A DNA stretch of 42,746 nt from a virus (taxonomy: Duplodnaviria > Caudoviricetes). A program made the position numbers and the translations under genes. Location of the stretch: positions 1 through 42,746 of the IMG/VR virus record IMGVR_UViG_3300033407_000044; one strand, 5' to 3'. Each line of letters begins with the position of its first letter. The stretch's first letter is position 1. The notes below the pieces were generated by a model. The model saw only the letters and a list, made by a program, of their open reading frames with translations, made no database searches and was not told the origin of the DNA. Shown here piece by piece: positions 10,186 through 42,746 of the stretch.

Positions 10186-10219
10186 TATTTAATTAAAAAT
10201 ATAATTAGGAGGGAGCCAC

Positions 10220-10549
10220 ATGTCTAATGAAGAAAAAGACGATCATAGAATTAGTCCAGAAAAATTAAAAAAGGTGCATGAAATTGTTGTGCCGTTGGCA
10301 TATCCAATTGATTGGGGCGACGAAACAATTAGCGAGCTACGCTTGCGAAGGCCCAAAGGTAAAGACCTTGAGCACATGTCGGCTGAGCCAACGATGAAAG
10401 AGCTAATGATGGTTGCGCAAAAATGTGCAAAGGTACCAAGGCGAGTTATTGAAGAGCTAGACTCCGAGGATGTAATGGAGTTAGTTGAGGCGGTTGCTGA
10501 TTTTTTGGAGAGTGGTCAGAGGACTGGCAGGAAGCGCTTGTACTCATAG
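10220..10549 (+). CDS. Tail assembly chaperone (gpE/TAC_7-like)
   Basis: L.YPI, LRRPKGKDL, IEELDSED..EL...V.DFL; between tube and tape measure. Confidence 0.9.
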   Translation: MSNEEKDDHRISPEKLKKVHEIVVPLAYPIDWGDETISELRLRRPKGKDLEHMSAEPTMKELMMVAQKCAKVPRRVIEELDSEDVMELVEAVADFLESGQRTGRKRLYS

Positions 10550-21021: not shown

Positions 21022-21317
21022 TAGAAAAACAAGAAATTGAATGGGCAAAAGAAACTGGCGACCATGGCGAAATTTTAAAAGAAATATCTCGCGGCATCGC
21101 TGAGAAAAAATCATTAATAGAGATTGCGTCTAGCTTACCCGACGAGGTTATGGAGGCCATAAACGGAGCCGATCAAACTGACGACGAGTTTCGCGAAAAC
21201 TTGCCTGTTGTTGCTGCAACAATTGGTTACCAACTTGGTTACTCACTTGGCCTAATTTTACAAAAGCGTGCTGAGCCTAAAGATGAGGCTCCTGTTGAGG
21301 GCGACGCGCAAGCTTAA
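21018..21317 (+). CDS. Hypothetical acidic helical protein
   Basis: AGGAG SD; overlapping operon packing. Confidence 0.65.
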   Translation: MIEKQEIEWAKETGDHGEILKEISRGIAEKKSLIEIASSLPDEVMEAINGADQTDDEFRENLPVVAATIGYQLGYSLGLILQKRAEPKDEAPVEGDAQA

Positions 21318-22054
21318 TGAAAAAGCGCCTAATAAAAAAAATTATCTTCGCAGCCTTGGGCGCGCTTCTCCTATTATTAGGAGGGTGCGCTCAATTTCAA
21401 GCTGCGCCTGAGTTAAACCCTGAAATTGAGTATCAACCAGATATATACTTACGAGCTGATGGGCGCGAGGGCCGGGGCTTTTTAGTTTTACCTAATAAGT
21501 CTTATTTAGATATTGAGGTAAAATCGCCTGGTAAAATTTCAATGCTTTTAGCAACCTCTTGCCATAGGCAAGAATCTAATTACGATATAAAATCGGGTTG
21601 GTTTAGGTCAGGTAAAGAATTTACTTATCGGCATACGCCAAACGGTGACGTTGAAAATTGCCTTTTACGTTTTGAAAGTTTCGATCAATCTAGCAAAAAG
21701 CGCCATGCTTGGGGCTTGATTGCAATGGCTAGCCCAATTGATAGCTTGCCCGCCGAATTGTATTGCGACGGCTCTCATGCTTTCCCTCGTGGCAACTCTA
21801 AAGCTATGCTTGGCGGCACTTCGCTTTGCATTGCCTGGCACGGACTCGATCAGAGAATTATTTTTAAAAGCCCTGTTGACGTTGTTTTTGACGACCCTAA
21901 TTGCGCGATACCCGTATCTGCGGACGGTAAAACTTGGGACTTTAAAATAAAAAAACATTTATGCGTTTATATTTTTGCCGATAAAAAAGCCCCATATGAC
22001 ACTCACAATTTAACAACTTTTGGCTACGACGAGGTACCTGTACGGATAAAATGA
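21317..22054 (+). CDS. Lipoprotein, Cys-rich
   Basis: Basic N-region, hydrophobic core, lipobox LGGC; 6 further Cys. Confidence 0.75.
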   Translation: MKKRLIKKIIFAALGALLLLLGGCAQFQAAPELNPEIEYQPDIYLRADGREGRGFLVLPNKSYLDIEVKSPGKISMLLATSCHRQESNYDIKSGWFRSGKEFTYRHTPNGDVENCLLRFESFDQSSKKRHAWGLIAMASPIDSLPAELYCDGSHAFPRGNSKAMLGGTSLCIAWHGLDQRIIFKSPVDVVFDDPNCAIPVSADGKTWDFKIKKHLCVYIFADKKAPYDTHNLTTFGYDEVPVRIK

Positions 22055-29069: not shown

Positions 29070-31075
29070 TTTCGATAGCGCTCCCCTTGCCAACCCTCAG
29101 CCGAAATTGGTAAGTCAGTAACCCATTCAGGCAATTCGCACATTATATTTTCAAGTTCTTTTACACTGCCAAAATTTTTACTAACCTCCGTAACAATTTC
29201 GTCGTGAACGTGTAAAATTACAGGATACCCTCGCGACTCAACTCGAACTAATGCCTCAGCTAACAAATCACGAGCAGTCGCTTGAGTTACGTTTTCAGCG
29301 ATCAAGCCGCCATACGCAACACGAGTGCAAAAATTATTGTAAACCATACCTTTATAAGTAAGGGCAATTTTTTGCTCGCCCCAAGGTGTCTTTACCTCTT
29401 GGAGTTTAGGATATGGGTAACAAATTGTACGCCCTGAGGGCAGCCTGCAAAATAAAAAAGAGCCCTTACGCAGGAACGTTATTAGCCTACCCTGAACACC
29501 GCAAGCAAATTTTTTATTAGGGTTTTGGGTGGCCGCTTGAGCGGCATTTTCTAAGTCATACCAAAACCTGACTATGCGTTGATTGGCATTTCGCCAGCGC
29601 ACTTTAATTTCGTCAGCTTGCGCGTCGGGTACTTTAATAAAATAAACTTTTGCCATTGATTGAAATGCGCCGACGCCTCCCTGAAAGCCTAAAGCCAAGT
29701 TGGCAACTTTGCCAATTAATCGTTGGGCCTTATTCACTTTATCAATAGCAACGCCATAAATTTCGCCCGCTGTATGCTCGTACATTTTGCCGTGAGTGCG
29801 ATAGACATTGAGCGCTGACTCTTGGCCTGCGAGCCAAGCTAAAACGCGGCCCTCAATTGCGCTAAAATCGCAAGCAACCAATTTTTTACCAGGGGCAGAT
29901 CGGAGCATAGCTCGAATACAACTAGTAATTGGGTCGATCGCTGAACCATGAAAAATATTTAAATACTCACTTGCCTCGTCGGGGGGCACTTTAGCTAGCC
30001 TCTCCATTATGTCCTCAATTTCATTTTGTGAAATTGTAGGCCGTTTTAAATTTTGCAACTGTATGCGCCGGCCTGCCCAACGGCCAGTCGAGGCCGCGCC
30101 ATAATATTGGAAACAGCCGCGCACTCGCCCGTCACTGCTTTTGCTAGTTATCATCGCTTGCAATTTAGAAGTTGACGATTTACTTGCCTCTTGCCTCAAT
30201 AAAAGGGCTGATCTAACTTTATCTGGTAAGCTATCAAGCGCGAGTAAGTCCATAACCTCGGCTTTTTGGACTGTTTCGCAGTCAAAGCCTTGCAATTGTA
30301 TCCAATCTCGCAAGGCAACGCTGGCGTTGCAGGTTGAAACCATGCCGCCAGTTAAATTATTGATTGCCTCGTTGGCTTTTTCTTTTTCTTTTTTAACGAC
30401 AATGATTGCTTTTCTTGCGGCATTTTCGTCAAGATATACTCCGCGATAATTAATTTTTTGATCTAAAAGCCAAATATTTCGCTCTGAATTTGATAAGTGT
30501 AAAAGCCTTTTATCTAGTTCCCGCTCGACTATTATATCCTGTATGCAATACCTATAGAGCGCTTTATATTTTTCTTTTATGTCTAGTTTTGGCGTCGAGT
30601 CCTCGGCATTCCACCATGTAATTTTGCCAGTTTTCAGGCATATTTTCCTTGGCTTACAAAGCTGCAACATTACTCTATGGCCTTTCATATCTTTTTTATA
30701 TGGCATACCAGTTGCGTTTGATGCGGCCTCAAGTGTACCAGGCAGCCCCATAGAGTAAGCTCTAACCATTGTGCAGTCGAATTTCGAAATTGGCATTTGT
30801 GGCCATCCATAACGTCGACAAACACCATTCCATATTAAAAATTCAAATGCGGCGTTATGAGCTATAAAAATCGAGTTTGGGTTTTGGACGATTTGCTTCA
30901 ATTCATACGGGAAAGCTTGGCCGGGCCTCCAAAGTTTAACGTCGTTGTCGTTAATGGCGTATGCCATGCAAAGCGCATCGGTTGTTTTATCTAAGGCGTA
31001 AACATGAGCGCCGGCTTTTCTTAAATCGACAGTGCTCCTAGTTTCAAAATCAATGTGGACATTAATTTTTGCCAA
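29066..31075 (-). CDS. DNA polymerase family A (APSE-type) with 3'-5' exonuclease
   Basis: ExoI DFET, ExoII HNAAFE, ExoIII YCIQD; TGRW, motif A DFSAIEGRV, motif B R..GK..NLALGF, motif C HVHDE. Confidence 0.96.
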   Translation of the reverse strand: MAKINVHIDFETRSTVDLRKAGAHVYALDKTTDALCMAYAINDNDVKLWRPGQAFPYELKQIVQNPNSIFIAHNAAFEFLIWNGVCRRYGWPQMPISKFDCTMVRAYSMGLPGTLEAASNATGMPYKKDMKGHRVMLQLCKPRKICLKTGKITWWNAEDSTPKLDIKEKYKALYRYCIQDIIVERELDKRLLHLSNSERNIWLLDQKINYRGVYLDENAARKAIIVVKKEKEKANEAINNLTGGMVSTCNASVALRDWIQLQGFDCETVQKAEVMDLLALDSLPDKVRSALLLRQEASKSSTSKLQAMITSKSSDGRVRGCFQYYGAASTGRWAGRRIQLQNLKRPTISQNEIEDIMERLAKVPPDEASEYLNIFHGSAIDPITSCIRAMLRSAPGKKLVACDFSAIEGRVLAWLAGQESALNVYRTHGKMYEHTAGEIYGVAIDKVNKAQRLIGKVANLALGFQGGVGAFQSMAKVYFIKVPDAQADEIKVRWRNANQRIVRFWYDLENAAQAATQNPNKKFACGVQGRLITFLRKGSFLFCRLPSGRTICYPYPKLQEVKTPWGEQKIALTYKGMVYNNFCTRVAYGGLIAENVTQATARDLLAEALVRVESRGYPVILHVHDEIVTEVSKNFGSVKELENIMCELPEWVTDLPISAEGWQGERYRK

Positions 31076-31084
31076 GATAAAGCT

Positions 31085-31237
31085 CCCTCTTTTATTTAAA
31101 TTGTCTTGATTTACTCAAGACCCTCTTTTATTTAAATTGTCTTGATTTACTCAAGACCCTCTTTTATTTAAATTGTCTTGATTTACTCAAGACCCTCTTT
31201 TATTTAAATTGTCTTGATTTACTCAAGACCCTCTTTT
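31085..31237. repeat. Perfect tandem repeat, 36 bp x4 plus 9 bp
   Basis: CCCTCTTTTATTTAAATTGTCTTGATTTACTCAAGA repeated without spacers. Confidence 0.97.
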
Positions 31238-32301: not shown

Positions 32302-33114
32302 TCAGCCTTCAACCGGCTCAAAATCAAGCTTAGGGTCGCGGTAAAAACCAAACTGTTTTTTCGCATCGGCAACATTTACTTTCTGCTTTTGCGGGCACTT
32401 AATTTTAGCAGGGCAAAAAATGCAATGATCGCCTGCAACTAAAGCGGCGTTTTCTTTTATAGTCTCTTTAGCTGCGGCAATTAAATCAGCCTCAAAATCA
32501 ATAAAATATGTATTGGGTACCGTCCAACTTCTTATAGGCCCGTCAGGGTGATAAGCTCTTGGTTGGACGATTGTCATTGTTATATATTTAGGTCTATATG
32601 GTAAAGTTGATAGCGCCCCGAGTGCATAGTAAGAAGTTTGCAGATTGTTTTCAACATTTACAACAATGCCTTCGCCGTGTTTATAATCAGCCACGTGTAA
32701 TGTCTGTTTCGAGCCCTCGTAGGCAACACAATCACTCGTGCCGTAAAGATCAGGGAAAATCTCAGTCATATCAAAAGCGTGCTCAATATGCACAACACCG
32801 CAACGCTTTTTTAGCTCAGCAACATATTCTAGGTAAACGCCCACTTGTCTGTTGAAAGTTTCTATGACATCGCCGACAGTTATTTGTTTCGAAAACGACT
32901 CCTCCAAAATAAAAGCTGAATACTCATGCGCCATTGTGCCAATTTGAGCGGCAGCCCCTGCTTTGTGGGGCACGCCCTCGCTCTCCCTAATTGAGCCAGG
33001 GCATTTAGCCCAACGATGCATTGAACTCGCCCCAATCTTGCTATGTACCGGCCTGTCATCTTTTAGCTCGAATTTTGGCGCAATTATTGTTTTTTCAAAC
33101 GTGTTGTTTACCAA
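32302..33114 (-). CDS. DUF2800 PD-(D/E)xK (Cas4-like) nuclease
   Basis: HS..GAS..HRW..CPGS, GT.AH, GTSD, DYKHG.G, Q..YYALG, C.FC..K..C; TTG 33114 follows GGAGG. Confidence 0.9.
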   Translation of the reverse strand: MVNNTFEKTIIAPKFELKDDRPVHSKIGASSMHRWAKCPGSIRESEGVPHKAGAAAQIGTMAHEYSAFILEESFSKQITVGDVIETFNRQVGVYLEYVAELKKRCGVVHIEHAFDMTEIFPDLYGTSDCVAYEGSKQTLHVADYKHGEGIVVNVENNLQTSYYALGALSTLPYRPKYITMTIVQPRAYHPDGPIRSWTVPNTYFIDFEADLIAAAKETIKENAALVAGDHCIFCPAKIKCPQKQKVNVADAKKQFGFYRDPKLDFEPVEG

Positions 33115-33157
33115 TGGGGCTCCCTCCAAACGAGATCGTTGCAAAGTTTTTTATGTT

Positions 33158-35274: not shown

Positions 35275-35674
35275 CTATTTTATATTTGAGCTCATAAACA
35301 AACTAGCCAGCTCTGAGTAAATTTCTGCTTTTTTATCATCTTCGTAAAATATATCAGCCAGTTGGGTAAATTGCTTTGATATGAGCCCCGCTCTATTTTG
35401 AGATGAGTTGCTTTGATATGAGCCCCGCTCTATTTTGAGATGAGTTGCTTTCCCAATGAGGCGCGAGCTCATAGAGGCGCATTTTGATATTCTCGACCTT
35501 TTTTTCAGTCTGGGCAAGTAATATCTCAAGGCATACATGACACGTAATTTTTTTGTAAGTTGTTGAGTATGTATGGCCTTTGATTTTATTGTGGTTACTA
35601 GGTAGGCCGCAAGGATATTTTTTGCCGTACCAGGTTGGCCCTAAATGTACTGTAATATTTTCTTTTTTACGCAT
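35275..35674 (-). pseudogene. Zn-finger-like gene frameshifted by a 37-bp duplication
   Basis: Both track ORFs share SNSSQNRAGLISKQ; removing one unit restores a single 120-aa ORF. Confidence 0.8.
35371..35451. repeat. Tandem duplication, 37 bp x2 plus 7 bp
   Basis: TTGCTTTGATATGAGCCCCGCTCTATTTTGAGATGAG twice, then TTGCTTT. Confidence 0.95.
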
Positions 35675-37090: not shown

Positions 37091-37163
37091 AAAATTACTA
37101 GATTTTAATGCTAAAAATTACTAGATTTTAATGCTAAAAATTACTAGATTTTAATGCTAAAAA
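37091..37163. repeat. Tandem repeat, 23 bp x3
   Basis: AAAATTACTAGATTTTAATGCTA three times, intergenic. Confidence 0.95.
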
Positions 37164-37673: not shown

Positions 37674-38467
37674 TACGATTTCGCCTCATTCATCCAAGCG
37701 ATAAAAGCTTCGATCATAGCCTTAGCAACTTTGTTTTTGTTATCATCAAAAGCTTTTGAATCGTCGGGATTAGACCCAAAAAATGGTTCAGTAAGTATCG
37801 ACGGCGTTTTTATTGTTTGCATTAGATTATAATAACCGCGCTCGCCTTTTTTCGCGATCGTCTTGAGCCCTTGCACTCGTTTGCCGTTCACGGTTGCTGA
37901 ATGGCGCATGGGCAGCCCGGTTATATCAGCCATAGCTTTAGATATCATAGACGCAAAAACAATTTCGTTTAAGCCTTTTTCATCAAAGTGGTTACAATAC
38001 AAAACTTCGGTACCTGTTGCTTTTGGGCTTTTGAAGCTATTGAAATGTAATTCGATGAAAGCATCGGGCTTGTGTTTTTTAAGTCGTAAGTAAGCGCCTT
38101 TAATACCGCCGTCATTTCTTTTTTCAACAACGACTTTCACGCCTAAGCTGTTGCCGTATTTAACTAGGATATCGGCGAACTCGCTCCAATAGTCATATTC
38201 CCTAACGCCATTTAAATAATCACTATGAGCTCCTCGGCTATTTTTAGTATGACCGACAACAACACCTAAAGTGCAGTCGCCTATTGGTTTTAATTTTGTT
38301 TTTGGCTTTGTTGCGTTCGATATAATTTCATCGCCAAGAGCGACACTTAAATGCTCGATGAGCTCCCTAGCGGCTTTCATTGCAATTTTATCGTCAGTCT
38401 TTTGCGCTCTTAGTAGTAGCTGTTTTGCGTACCAGCGAAAAGTATATAGACTACTTCTTTTAATCAT
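37673..38467 (-). CDS. N-acetylmuramoyl-L-alanine amidase (Amidase_3), probable endolysin
   Basis: VGH...E, FIELHFNS, GTEV, SILTEPFF Zn-amidase motifs; extra ~60-aa helical N-terminus. Confidence 0.9.
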   Translation of the reverse strand: MIKRSSLYTFRWYAKQLLLRAQKTDDKIAMKAARELIEHLSVALGDEIISNATKPKTKLKPIGDCTLGVVVGHTKNSRGAHSDYLNGVREYDYWSEFADILVKYGNSLGVKVVVEKRNDGGIKGAYLRLKKHKPDAFIELHFNSFKSPKATGTEVLYCNHFDEKGLNEIVFASMISKAMADITGLPMRHSATVNGKRVQGLKTIAKKGERGYYNLMQTIKTPSILTEPFFGSNPDDSKAFDDNKNKVAKAMIEAFIAWMNEAKS

Positions 38468-38742
38468 TGTTTTTGCTCCTTTGTTTGTTTTGGATATAAA
38501 AATTTATCAAGCTCCATGTGTAATTTAAAAAATTCACTAGCGTCTAACTGATCAACCTCTTGCTTTGTTAAGCTTGACAACCTAGCTATAAGGACGGCAA
38601 GGGACTCCATATGCTGAGGGCCATTAAAAATCAGTCCATATAAATCTATGGCTATCGGTCGACGAAATTTAACTAAAACAGACTCGCATTCAAAGCTGTC
38701 CTGTTTTACCATTTTTACTTTAATGGCTATTGATGAACTCAT
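38464..38742 (-). CDS. Second tail assembly chaperone-like protein
   Basis: FRRP.A.DL, LIARLS.L....VDQLDA.EF..L....KFL aligns by eye with 10220..10549. Confidence 0.7.
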   Translation of the reverse strand: MSSSIAIKVKMVKQDSFECESVLVKFRRPIAIDLYGLIFNGPQHMESLAVLIARLSSLTKQEVDQLDASEFFKLHMELDKFLYPKQTKEQKQ

Positions 38743-39232: not shown

Positions 39233-39299
39233 AATTTAATCTCCTCTTTTTTATTACGCCATTTAAGAAAACTAGCAGAAAAAGGCCAAAAACAGGCAA

Positions 39300-39630
39300 A
39301 AAACAGGCGTCCAACTGGCGTCCAACCGCCAAAACGCCAGTTGGCCAGGTTAAAACCTTACAAGCTGTTGTTTTTATTAAGAAAGTCGAAAAGTGGCCAC
39401 GTTGGCCACCCAAAACGGGGGTTTTCAGTTGGGGAGAATATATTTGCAGTACGTATATCTGCTTACTTCATATTTTTATTCACAACTGGTAGTATTTGCC
39501 TGGACACCCTGGACACTTATTTATAATATTATATAAATATATATAATTATTAAAGAATTACTAGTAAACAAATGGACACCGAGGCGTGTCATCCAGTTGG
39601 ACGCCAGTTGGCCACCCTGGACACCTCAGC
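39300..39630. other. Probable replication origin
   Basis: About ten TGG(A/C)C(A/G)C heptamers in both orientations, a 16-bp inverted repeat and an AT-rich core, between divergent arms. Confidence 0.65.
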
Positions 39631-39770
39631 GATAATTATTCGCCCGTTGGCGTATTTTTCGTAAATTTGTTGTTGAGCTGACTTGTTTTTAGAAAATTTG
39701 TTGTAGATTGGCATATTTTTCAAAAATTAAGTATGTTGTTTTTAAATATTAACGGGCAAAGGGGCAAAAA

Positions 39771-40069: not shown

Positions 40070-40351
40070 ATGCAAACTGTTACTAATAATAGGGCGATAA
40101 TTAATGATAGATATTCGACTATGACAGTTAACCAGCTTAAAATGTTTTTTCAAAATATTCCGTTACGAGACATAGGCGGGCAAGAGCTAAGAGCGTTTTT
40201 CCAGTATGAGGCCGATGAGCTCGGCATACCTAAAGGTAAACTAAAAAAATTAGTTAATGACGGCTTTCTTGAAAGTAAATATTTTAATCCAAGTAAAGAG
40301 TCAGGTTTGAACGGTGGCAGCCGTAAAATTTATATTGTTGCTTTACGATAG
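40070..40351 (+). CDS. Possible winged-helix DNA-binding protein
   Basis: ADELGIP...LKKLV.DGFL...RKIY pattern. Confidence 0.55.
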   Translation: MQTVTNNRAIINDRYSTMTVNQLKMFFQNIPLRDIGGQELRAFFQYEADELGIPKGKLKKLVNDGFLESKYFNPSKESGLNGGSRKIYIVALR

Positions 40352-40358
40352 CAAAAGG

Positions 40359-40420
40359 CGAGCCTACTTTCCTGTTAAGGAAAACTTACCTCCTTGTAAG
40401 CTAGTTGCCTAATAGGCTCA
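40359..40420 (-). ncRNA. Candidate four-way-junction structured RNA
   Basis: Closing stem GAGCCUA/UAGGCUC encloses three hairpins with loops GCAA, AAGGAG and UAAC. Confidence 0.55.
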
Positions 40421-40445
40421 TTGTGAAATTTATATGCAAGGGCGC

Positions 40446-40599
40446 ATTGTTTATTGTTTATTGTTTATTGTTTATTGTTTGTTGTTTATTGTTTATTGTT
40501 TATTGTTTATTGTTTATTGTTTATTGTTTATTGTTTATTGTTTATTGTTTATTGTTTATTGTTTATTGTTTATTGTTTATTGTTTATTGTTTATTGTTT
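40446..40599. repeat. Heptamer array (ATTGTTT)x22
   Basis: 22 units, one variant GTTGTTT at 40481. Confidence 0.97.
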
Positions 40600-40839
40600 T
40601 AAAAAGCTTTTAAAGTGATGCTTTTTTAGTATTTTATTGGCTCGACGGTTAGCCGCGCGTCTAACCGCATTTATTATTGATAGCCCAAAATTCAATCGCC
40701 ACTCCTCTTGTATGATATCGCCAAAATGCCGAATAGTTCTTTTGGCGTCAGTTATATTTATTTCTCGGCCCTCAGACTTTTCGCGGTGGCATATCTCAGC
40801 AGCTAATTTATTTAAATAGCTAAATTTATGATTTTGCAT
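40591..40839 (-). CDS. HU/IHF-like helical protein lacking beta arms
   Basis: LNKLAAEI....I...DAKRTI..F.DII.E resembles HU helices 1-2; basic C-terminal helix. Confidence 0.5.
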   Translation of the reverse strand: MQNHKFSYLNKLAAEICHREKSEGREINITDAKRTIRHFGDIIQEEWRLNFGLSIINAVRRAANRRANKILKKHHFKSFLKQ

Positions 40840-40893
40840 AAAAGGCCCTTTCCGTTATATTTAAATCATAACTGAGGAGAGGAGTTATTAGAA

Positions 40894-41265
40894 ATGAATA
40901 TTCTTGTAATCGATGACTGTAAGTATCACATTGAGGCACTGGGCGGGATTCTATTAAGAAGAGGGCATGCTGTGCTGGCGGCGCGTGACGGTGAACACGG
41001 GCTCGATGTATTGGAGCGAAATGCTGAGTCTATAAATTTTATAATAACTGATTCACAAATGCCTAAAATGGACGGTTATACTTTTTCACGAAAAGCAAAA
41101 TTGAATTTTCCTAATATTCCAATTGTTATGCATACGGCGAGCATCTTAGTGACAAAAAATGATGACTTGATTGCTGTTGTTGATAAAGGCGAGTATGAGC
41201 AATTGATTAAATTGATAAATGACTATGATAATGACTGGCCTATTGATCGGAGTTGTGATGCGTAA
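40894..41265 (+). CDS. Single-domain response regulator (CheY-like receiver)
   Basis: ILVIDD, IITDSQMPKMDG (phospho-Asp), IPIVMHT, K; strong SD. Confidence 0.92.
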   Translation: MNILVIDDCKYHIEALGGILLRRGHAVLAARDGEHGLDVLERNAESINFIITDSQMPKMDGYTFSRKAKLNFPNIPIVMHTASILVTKNDDLIAVVDKGEYEQLIKLINDYDNDWPIDRSCDA

Positions 41266-41392
41266 AAATAAAAAAGTAATATTTAAGCCAAGAGTTGAGT
41301 TTTCAATGAAAAACGAAATGCTTGTTTTATCTTTTTTCTCAATGTTGTTTATGGCGCTCGTGCTCTTATTCATTTTTGTAATAAGCTTTTGA
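41258..41392 (+). CDS. 44-aa single-pass membrane peptide
   Basis: MRKNKKVIFKPRVEFSMKNEMLVLSFFSMLFMALVLLFIFVISF*; overlaps the receiver stop; below the track cutoff. Confidence 0.6.
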   Translation: MRKNKKVIFKPRVEFSMKNEMLVLSFFSMLFMALVLLFIFVISF

Positions 41393-41454
41393 TTTGCTCG
41401 TTTTTGTAATAAGTTTATAATTCGCCATACCTTTGCTCGGTTAGGCGATATCTT

Positions 41455-41501
41455 GGGGCAACTTGCTTTTATTCACGATTTTAGCGAGTTGCTCCTTTTT
41501 T
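41455..41501 (+). terminator. Intrinsic terminator
   Basis: GGGGCAACTTGCT / AGCGAGTTGCTCC stem, then T6. Confidence 0.75.
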
Positions 41502-41531
41502 ATTTTACGTGTATTGCGTTAAACTATCTAA

Positions 41532-41762
41532 ATGACAGGCCCCAACGGCATTATCGCGAAAGTCAGTACATTATCGGATGAGGAGAAAGAGATTAGCGTG
41601 CTTTTTCTTGACCCGTTATTAGTTAATGAGCCAGTATGGGATATTATAGGCCGTGTTGCTATAATTAACATGACAAAACAAAAATGCAGCTACGAGCAAG
41701 CAATTGTCATGGCGTATATTGAAATTTACAATGCGGCAAAAGACAATATAACTGTGCAATGA
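41532..41762 (+). CDS. Hypothetical protein
   Basis: ATG 6 nt after TAAACT; no SD. Confidence 0.55.
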   Translation: MTGPNGIIAKVSTLSDEEKEISVLFLDPLLVNEPVWDIIGRVAIINMTKQKCSYEQAIVMAYIEIYNAAKDNITVQ

Positions 41763-41772
41763 GGGAGCAGGC

Positions 41773-41955
41773 ATGGGATATTTAGTTATTGGTAGACGAA
41801 TAAACGAGCGAATTTTGCTAACTAACGGCGCTGATAAGATTGAAATATTAATTTCAGATATTCGAAACGAAAGCGGGCAGCTAATTGCTGACGTAGCCAC
41901 TAAAGCTCCTAAAAAATACAATATTAAGAAAATAAAAAAGCATATCGAGGAGTAG
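41773..41955 (+). CDS. csrA: CsrA/RsmA-like translational regulator
   Basis: LVIGRRINERI.L...IEI.I....V...APK.Y.I matches the CsrA beta pattern; 60 aa. Confidence 0.78.
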   Translation: MGYLVIGRRINERILLTNGADKIEILISDIRNESGQLIADVATKAPKKYNIKKIKKHIEE

Positions 41956-41960
41956 AAAAA

Positions 41961-42572
41961 GTGACTATTAAAATCGAGCTATCTTTAGAAAAAGACATTA
42001 AAAATTTAGACGAGTTTTTTAGCGACGTTAAGTTTAAGGCGATAACACTTGCGACTAGGCAAGCGCTGAATAGGACGGCCCGAGACGTAAAAGTTAGCGC
42101 TGTAAAAGAGTTAAGAAAACGCCAAAAGCTAAAATTAAAAGAAGTAAATCAACGAGTAAAACAGCAAAAGGCTAGGGGCTCAAATATCGCGACTTTAGAG
42201 TCGAGTATTGAGTTTAGTGGCATACCATTGCCTTTAATTCTTTTTATTGTTGGGCGTAAAGAGCCTATAAAGCATACACGTCCTAATCGAAGTCGTAAGT
42301 CTCGTAAATTCGAATTGCGTAAGGGCAATAAGAAAAGCAAGCCGGGGTTATTTGTTGAAAAGGCTAAGAGAGGGCGATTGCGATATCAAGTATTCAGGAG
42401 GCGTGGCCCGAATGATAAGAGCAAAGGTTTTGTAAAGCAGAGTGCGCCTAGTATCGCGCATTTTTTGCAGTCTAAGAGAAATATATTAACTAAGATAGAA
42501 AACAACGGTATTGCGATCATGCAACAAGAGTTTGATCGTGCTATTAAATTGCAATTGGATAAGTTGAAATAG
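41961..42572 (+). CDS. Minor tail protein Z-like (neck/tail completion)
   Basis: A..QALNRTA, VF.R.G, APSI, F.R.I pattern of the lambda gpZ family; very basic. Confidence 0.72.
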   Translation: MTIKIELSLEKDIKNLDEFFSDVKFKAITLATRQALNRTARDVKVSAVKELRKRQKLKLKEVNQRVKQQKARGSNIATLESSIEFSGIPLPLILFIVGRKEPIKHTRPNRSRKSRKFELRKGNKKSKPGLFVEKAKRGRLRYQVFRRRGPNDKSKGFVKQSAPSIAHFLQSKRNILTKIENNGIAIMQQEFDRAIKLQLDKLK

Positions 42573-42706
42573 AAAAAGAATAACGTTTGGCGTTTGGAGG
42601 GAGCCTGTTAAATGTTTTTACAGCACACGTATCACAATAGAATCGATCGTATTACTAACGTAAACCGTAAACGATTGTATTACGCTTATAACCCATTGAT
42701 ATGTCT

Positions 42707-42734: not shown

Positions 42735-42746
42735 GGTAGCGCAGAG
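42735..42746. repeat. Right copy of 12-nt terminal repeat (cosN)
   Basis: Identical to 1-12. Confidence 0.85.

Follow-up and report, generated by a model that had tools for sequence, protein, structure and literature searches.

Most of the ligands obtained with CsrA by SELEX carry AC/GU pairing around a six-base loop (PMC7652899), and the high-affinity form recognized by the homologous RsmE is an ANGGAX hexaloop placed directly on a stem, with Thr5, Gln29 and Arg44 of the protein contacting the RNA (PMC4005645). Escherichia coli CsrA represses its own leader through a site that overlaps the csrA Shine-Dalgarno sequence (PMC7652899). Phage csrA genes are already known: they were reported in 30 of 2517 phage genomes (PMC7366521), Bci is a phage-encoded CsrA homologue (PMC7546807), and knockdown of the phage csrA gene PTXU04_00028 resulted in smaller plaques, its role being stated as untested (PMC11879866). 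No phage-encoded decoy or antagonist RNA for CsrA was found in the literature searched, in which few subscription papers were covered; the csrA-tldR loci are described as chromosomal and not phage-borne (bioRxiv 10.1101/2025.07.22.666180), and the prophage RNA sponges treated in a 2026 review act on small RNAs (PMC13501541). Here we describe a locus of the uncultured tailed phage IMGVR_UViG_3300033407_000044 in which a csrA-like gene (positions 41773-41955, + strand) lies 1.4 kb from a 60-base element on the opposite strand (40360-40419, -), predicted to fold into a perfect four-way junction that presents an AAGGAG hexaloop resembling a CsrA target. The whole record of 42,746 bases, about 98% complete, was analyzed and is referred to as the window; sequence, gene order, homology and residue changes are given as observed, and both folds, that of the junction and that of the csrA leader, as predicted.

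Results

A predicted four-way junction that occurs once in the genome

The letters reported for the element in a first-pass annotation of the window (40419-40360, -) were confirmed. RNAfold predicts an 8-base-pair helix P1 (40419-40412 with 40367-40360) that encloses P2 (40411-40402; 3 base pairs, GCAA loop), P3 (40401-40384; 6 base pairs, AAGGAG loop) and P4 (40383-40368; 6 base pairs, UAAC loop), leaving no unpaired base at the junction, where two G-U pairs are located. The cloverleaf drawn in the first-pass annotation contained the same four helices in a shifted register, with a less favorable energy (-18.2 versus -21.1 kcal/mol). For the exact 60 nucleotides (nt), shuffled sequences folded equally well in 0 of 300 cases and, in a second run, in 2 of 200, while for longer pieces these numbers rose to 8 of 200 (81 nt), 52 of 300 (106 nt) and 137 of 2000 (the 94-nt intergenic piece). 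The stability of the element is thus modest and dependent on the chosen boundaries, and energy is a weak argument for it.

Topology is the stronger argument. Among 2000 shuffles of the 94-nt intergenic piece none formed a perfect junction, six formed a junction with at most two unpaired bases, one formed an ANGGAN hexaloop, and none combined a tight junction with the hexaloop. When 12,194 scan windows along the genome were folded, 85 contained any four-way junction, five (from three loci) one with at most two unpaired junction bases, and two one with none; these two overlap and represent a single locus, the 40360-40419 element, and no other locus of the genome had one. The criteria of junction and topology rarity were chosen post hoc, when the element had already been seen. 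The + strand of the same DNA also folds into four helices (-17.3 versus -21.1 kcal/mol on the - strand), without the two G-U pairs, without the GNRA loop and, in the centroid structure, without P2. The - strand is favored because of these two G-U pairs, the GNRA loop and the lower energy.

Comparison with Rfam placed the element in no family (0 matches at the gathering score), the only match over it being a weak one to Xist_exon1 (E 0.28), and a transfer RNA scan found none. A search with the P1 stem pattern, for which 120 of about 700 stretches were retrieved, gave two matches with three hairpins and a GGA loop among 240 strand-wise comparisons, both of them loose. Scans of viral contigs with csrA, gpZ and the open reading frame (ORF) at the terminase position confirmed 0 relatives with flanking DNA, as did genome scans with the csrA and gpZ alignments, and no RNA sequencing run was among the runs listed as holding the sequence. 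The element is real as a predicted structure and is limited above all by its single copy.

The AAGGAG loop as a candidate CsrA site

The AAGGAG hexaloop (40390-40395, -) is closed by a C-G and then an A-U pair, and its formation is predicted with a probability of 0.97 (at least 0.86 in six of eight window sizes). At 10 of 12 positions, including the invariant ACA and GGA, the tip of P3 agrees with RUACARGGAUGU, the SELEX consensus, and it shares the AC/GU pairing and the six-base loop of the CsrA SELEX ligands; in addition, its ANGGAX hexaloop sits directly on a stem closed by C-G, as in the high-affinity form bound by RsmE. The earlier claim that this loop resembles a CsrA target is borne out by both comparisons. 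Any canonical CsrA from the host would probably bind it as well. The hexaloop also constitutes a perfect Shine-Dalgarno sequence, yet no start codon follows it. The 16-mer of P3 was found in 12 other viral stretches, where it stands, by eye, mostly ahead of a start codon, and the junction was absent from all 12. The motif ACARGGANGT occurred four times in 619,534 bases of background sequence, with the hexaloop formed at none of these four sites. An unrelated viral contig (L042, 2446-2461, -) carries the same AAGGAG hairpin right after another hairpin and with no start codon close behind; it is possible that this represents a second CsrA-type site.

Only one GGA is exposed in the element (unpaired probability 0.97-0.99), a second being paired (unpaired 0.02-0.03), and four GGA occur within 600 nt. 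Because of the single exposed GGA the RNA is not a sponge of the CsrB/RsmZ type, and the term sponge used in the first-pass annotation does not apply in its multivalent sense.

A divergent CsrA-family protein encoded ahead of gpZ

The first-pass annotation had proposed a pair of csrA and RNA at one locus, of which the csrA-like ORF of 60 amino acids stands, with the two partners located on opposite strands (csrA on +, the RNA on -). On its own, the protein of the window remains below the family cut-offs (14.6 bits versus 27 for PF02599, 16.5 versus 70.1 for TIGR00202). Its relatives, a clade of about 84 proteins of which it is a divergent member, match the family: all 16 aligned members gave PF02599 matches at E ≤0.1 (best 4.5e-15), a profile of the relatives matched CsrA/Rsm in 11 of 12 PDB matches (best 2.1e-12), and a wider protein search found PF02599 in 82 of 83 proteins. 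A structure model (predicted local distance difference test score, pLDDT, 85.8) had CsrA/Rsm proteins as its top six PDB matches (probability 0.97-1.0, template modeling score 0.57-0.64), none of its PDB matches reaching E ≤0.001, and phage CsrA as its top five viral matches. The CsrA fold suggested earlier is supported by these family matches, profile matches and model rankings. By relatives and predicted fold the protein would belong to the CsrA family, and by homology it may be expected to work like CsrA.

Residue counts were taken over 84 metagenomic proteins, after P0086-P0088, which looked like ordinary bacterial CsrA, had been dropped, and canonical residue numbers were taken from alignments to solved CsrA structures. 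The Arg44 column holds Arg in 72, Lys in 11 and Asn in one of the proteins; the protein of the window has Lys53 there, in agreement with the earlier remark that the canonical arginine is missing. The Thr5 column holds Ser (67) or Gly (10), with Gly in the protein of the window, and the Gln29 column Lys (53), Arg (24) or Ile (2), with Ile in the protein of the window. Where two solved CsrAs have Lys31, Asp is found in 77 of the 84 proteins, including that of the window. The protein is thus an eroded member of a clade that had itself shifted already.

Directly downstream of csrA lies a gpZ-type tail completion gene (41961-42572, +; PF06763 E 1.9e-7, phrog_27 E 5.3e-18), and a sigma-70-like promoter candidate for csrA-gpZ (10 of 12 positions matched) is located at 41704-41732 (+), from a promoter scan that was weak overall (17 sites versus 11.9 ± 3.6 in shuffles). 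The protein of the window had no tblastn match in 50,697 phage records, and cultured phages gave no match to clade member P0002 or to gpZ either. The only relative with flanks, obtained from 598 pattern matches, is a metagenome locus of 1553 bases (L045), which has the same order of csrA and gpZ and no junction in its 1080 bases upstream, where the genes differ. In this locus the tail of csrA (1082-1300) overlaps the start of gpZ (1251-1553), so that what looks like a conserved C-terminus in many clade members may simply reflect the second reading frame of gpZ; by a loose pattern and with no control, 46 of 84 csrA tails resemble the overlap frame, a count that we do not rely on.

The csrA leader and other operator-like sites

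The csrA leader is predicted to form a hairpin (41742-41787, +) in which the Shine-Dalgarno sequence forms a G-C-closed AGGGAG hexaloop (41762-41767) and the start codon lies in the stem. The hexaloop probability is 0.85 (0.81-0.88 in all eight window sizes), and the stability of the whole hairpin is only z -1.35. Among the 147 ANGGAN sites of the genome a hexaloop probability above 0.5 was reached at two, the junction loop (0.97) and the csrA Shine-Dalgarno sequence (0.85). In unrelated viral loci 13 of 3230 ANGGAN sites exceeded 0.8, none of them in a tight junction. The place of the leader hexaloop is notable because the autoregulation described for E. coli would predict a CsrA site there. 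It suggests autorepression through a candidate autoregulatory operator, and the hairpin may be taken as an independent hint that the protein reads ANGGAN hexaloops. Among the N-terminally extended homologues listed, one of seven reads compatibly with the leader site.

Similar sites of the form G[AGGGAG]C were found at four further starts, namely at a tail-chaperone-like gene at 10220 (10208-10217, +), at the DNA polymerase gene at 31075 (31079-31092, -, with four flanking pairs), at the exonuclease gene at 33114 (33118-33127, -, hexaloop not predicted unaided) and before a short unverified ORF at 42612 (42596-42605, +). In 62 hand-picked gene starts ANGGAN was present in 19 ribosome-binding sites, five of which had at least two flanking Watson-Crick pairs, all of them G[AGGGAG]C. 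At least two such pairs (three types) flank five of the eight AGGGAG ribosome-binding sites versus 10 of 126 AGGGAG sites in control loci. The permutation p is 0.003 within the eight AGGGAG sites (post hoc), and the Fisher p versus other sites is 0.035. An identical 15-base word occurs at 42591-42605 (+) and 33118-33132 (-) before two unrelated starts and is the longest shared among the 62 leaders; it is a possible DNA or RNA operator.

Surroundings of the element and genome setting

The element is situated between two converging ORFs, one of 93 amino acids (40070-40351, +), which stops 8 nt before P1, and an orphan one of 82 amino acids (40591-40839, -), which is the likely source of its transcript. 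For the 82-amino-acid ORF 0 homologues were found and the codon score is weakly positive; its structure model, predicted without an alignment, is all-helical and of low confidence (pLDDT 68). The first-pass annotation had called this gene HU-like, a label that neither sequence nor fold supports: no HU match was found in Pfam, PHROGs, NCBIfam or PDB, the model is without the beta-ribbon arms of HU/IHF, and none of the Foldseek matches (best E 1.9) was HU. The (TAAACAA)22 tract noted earlier was recovered at 40446-40599 (-) with 22.0 copies and 98% matched; it begins within the stop codon of the 82-amino-acid ORF and, on the - strand, is G-free and predicted to be unpaired (0.95). It contains 11 non-overlapping AAnAAnAA, a motif to which Hfq/Crc binds in Pseudomonas (PMC5113210). 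The same 7-mer array, searched with a 35-nt tract query, occurs in 32 unrelated viral stretches, which weighs against a function of the tract. Its copy number may be set by assembly, since the 154 bases of the tract and the 153 of a second array are near the usual read length; contigs from two DNA sequencing runs covered repeat units only. ORFs with LFIVYCL repeats across the tract were rejected as genes by negative codon scores. Divergent from the 82-amino-acid ORF lies a stand-alone response-regulator receiver domain (40894-41265, +; PF00072 E 1.3e-13), so that a second host-signaling module adjoins csrA in this phage. A long hairpin with a T run (41455-41495, +; z -7.1, matched by 0 of 200 shuffles), absent from the list of the terminator scan, is likely a terminator that parts the receiver-domain unit from csrA. 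A resolvase gene is located 1.1 kb from the element.

Gene matches in the genome comprise a terminase small subunit, tail, DNA polymerase, primase, exonuclease, resolvase and amidase, and the capsid and sheath matches to cultured phages reach 36% and 44% at best. The only sequencing run to contain nearly all sampled words of the record is a soil metagenome, which may be its source. A 12-base direct repeat at both ends of the record (1-12 and 42735-42746), just upstream of the terminase small-subunit gene, may represent a cohesive end. The spacer between divergent gene blocks at 39233-39770 contains many short direct and inverted repeats, is origin-like by appearance and has a weak Rfam cloverleaf match (E 0.33). 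A second tail-assembly-chaperone-like gene (38464-38742, -; PF10109 at the cut-off) lies between resolvase and amidase and not in the tail cluster, and the hairpin with the highest GC-corrected stability in the genome is found at about 21349-21406 (+), just inside an ORF starting at 21317. Three further perfect tandem arrays occur at 31085-31237 (36 x 4.2), 35371-35451 (37 x 2.2) and 37091-37163 (23 x 3.2); the first, with a small hairpin in each unit, ends in the ribosome-binding site of the polymerase gene.

Discussion

The reading that we prefer, at a probability of about 0.35, is that the phage protein represses translation of its own mRNA, perhaps together with the mRNAs of a few replication and tail genes, while the junction RNA serves as a threshold-setting single-site decoy. 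The CsrA-fold protein would bind the hexaloop over its own Shine-Dalgarno sequence and thereby repress csrA translation. The junction RNA would make up the structured 3' portion of another transcript, which may start on the - strand upstream of the 82-amino-acid ORF, cross the unstructured tract and be trimmed back to P1, and it would act as a single-site decoy for the phage protein. By keeping the AAGGAG loop pre-formed, the junction might out-compete the weaker mRNA sites, and the decoy could in this way time the translation of csrA and of the downstream gpZ, and perhaps of four further genes. The RNA and the protein are a candidate pair.

A number of observations weigh against such a circuit. 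On the RNA side, the element does not rank with the 14 most stable loci of the genome after GC correction, and its stability in the context of the 94-nt spacer is unremarkable (137 of 2000 shuffles as stable); a second copy of the junction RNA was not found in the viral, genome and metagenome scans; no - strand promoter or terminator is listed beside the element, in a promoter scan restricted to sigma-70; and base-pairing RNAs that antagonize CsrA have at least two GGA each. On the protein side, the term cognate used in the first-pass annotation is weakened because the protein of the window is without equivalents of Thr5, Gln29 and Arg44, and divergent CsrAs were enriched among the non-repressors in a Bacillus subtilis screen (PMC13443453). 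Two stable hexaloops among 147 sites are no excess over expectation (about 0.6), so that only their places are notable. Furthermore, the related locus L045 keeps the same 11 nt of the csrA leader with a hexaloop probability of 0.0, two cultured csrA phages have no hexaloop above 0.3 within 4 kb, the permutation p is only 0.018 across all 19 ANGGAN ribosome-binding sites, and the four extra operator-like sites are unstable unaided and were found with a post hoc test. Finally, the closing pairs differ, being C-G in the RNA loop and G-C in all five mRNA sites.

Several other explanations have to be considered, each of them less probable. The junction might be a 3'-end, stability or termination structure between the converging genes, in which the GGA loop is incidental. 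This explanation, which we judge improbable but deserving serious attention, would fit the location of the element 8 nt past the stop of the + gene and about 170 nt past that of the - gene, the folding of the junction on both strands, and the small hairpin followed by a U-rich tract on the + strand; an incidental loop would also agree with the single occurrence of ACARGGANGT in the genome, where about 0.3 are expected by chance. However, the terminator scan lists nothing at the element, and a terminator requires neither four helices nor a SELEX-type hexaloop, which none of the four background sites with this motif formed. Alternatively, a functionless chance fold may have arisen next to a slippage microsatellite, in a spacer rich in AT, csrA being unrelated to it. 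The single instance, the modest in-context energy, the tests picked after the fact, the recurrence of the 7-mer array in the 32 unrelated viral stretches and the other near-perfect tandem arrays of the genome are all consistent with this view, but we regard it as unlikely, given that a perfect junction, a GNRA loop and a consensus hexaloop coincide on one strand and that a tight junction together with the hexaloop was seen in 0 of 2000 shuffles and at 0 of 3230 background sites.

The difference in closing pairs could also mean that the RNA is a decoy for host CsrA, while the phage protein, with a shifted specificity, reads only G-C-closed AGGGAG operators and the host regulator is swapped for that of the phage. 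The RNA loop has indeed the canonical C-G closure, the G of which is read by Thr5 in RsmE (PMC4005645), all five phage mRNA sites are G-C-closed, and in the clade Thr5 is replaced by Ser/Gly and Gln29 by Lys/Arg, while 77 of 84 proteins have Asp where two solved CsrAs have Lys. Nevertheless, the host may lack CsrA, a single site per RNA would sequester little of an abundant host protein, and it is the protein backbone that reads the core bases of the loop, so that cross-binding is expected (PMC4005645); we consider this reading quite unlikely. Slightly less probable still is its extension to an orthogonal Csr circuit, in which the junction transcript would soak up host CsrA, and perhaps Hfq via the A-rich array, while the phage CsrA would read G-C-closed operators of the phage itself on csrA and on the polymerase, exonuclease and tail genes. 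The remaining two explanations are both very improbable. If the + strand were the functional one, the loop would be an anti-Shine-Dalgarno sequence (CUCCUU) pairing with ribosome-binding sites, which would suit the four helices of that strand and the mostly + orientation of the neighboring genes, but its fold is weaker, loses P2 in the centroid and has no GNRA loop, and no complement to the loop of at least 8 nt exists elsewhere in the genome. If the element acted as single-stranded DNA, it might serve as a signal for replication or as a substrate or decoy of the phage's RuvC-like resolvase, whose gene is only 1.1 kb away; the same junction is predicted with DNA parameters (-11.0 kcal/mol, matched by 2 of 200 shuffles). 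However, the element is not a perfect inverted repeat and would form no cruciform in duplex DNA, the G-T pair of the junction is missing from the DNA centroid, and the loops are RNA-type motifs.

The phage offers testable candidate ligands for its CsrA, namely the csrA leader, four additional ribosome-binding sites and a compact candidate decoy. Binding, if true, would make the element a phage-encoded CsrA-antagonist RNA with a single-site four-way-junction build unlike that of CsrB/RsmZ. Similarly, the orthogonal circuit, if true, would provide a phage anti-CsrA RNA of new architecture, and a CsrA with a shifted closing-pair preference, if true, would be a useful orthogonal repressor. What appears to be new here is that the csrA Shine-Dalgarno sequence is predicted to be the only other stable ANGGAN hexaloop of the genome, and that its motif is weakly shared by four more ribosome-binding sites.

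The protein shares with CsrA/RsmA/RsmE (PF02599; PDB 1vpz, 2jpp, 5dmb) the profile, the predicted fold, an N-terminal strand of the Leu2/Leu4/Arg6/Arg7 type, the Ala-Pro turn and a basic residue 44, but differs by a Met-Gly N-terminal extension, by Gly, Ile, Asp and Lys at positions 5, 29, 31 and 44, and by the lack of a C-terminal helix in the monomer model. Like the phage CsrA homologues cited above, which have been linked to infection fitness, it is encoded in a tailed phage. In contrast to them, it belongs to a separate clade, its gene stands before gpZ and not near a repressor gene as in two other phage loci (L166 and L167), and a candidate RNA ligand and operator sites are found in the same genome. 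As in E. coli csrA autoregulation, a candidate CsrA site lies over its own Shine-Dalgarno sequence, here as one G-C-closed predicted hexaloop versus four leader sites. The A-rich tract resembles the CrcZ-type Hfq sponge (PMC5113210) in having AAnAAnAA in a predicted unstructured tract, a resemblance only; unlike CrcZ, it is a plain microsatellite of 7-mers, which arises in unrelated viruses too. As a ligand derived from a 3' untranslated region, its nearest precedent for the junction RNA is RsmW of Pseudomonas aeruginosa, an RsmA-binding RNA suggested to be processed from the 3' untranslated region of an upstream small gene (PMC4950607); unlike the element described here, RsmW has seven GGA, three of them in loops, and follows an RsmA-like gene on the same transcript (PMC4950607). 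With CsrB/CsrC and RsmX/Y/Z the junction RNA has in common a GGA in a hairpin loop with consensus closure, whereas its one exposed GGA, the perfect four-way junction, the lack of an Rfam match, its location in a phage and a terminator that was not found set it apart. The junction RNA therefore resembles one arm of RsmZ and is not a member of that class.

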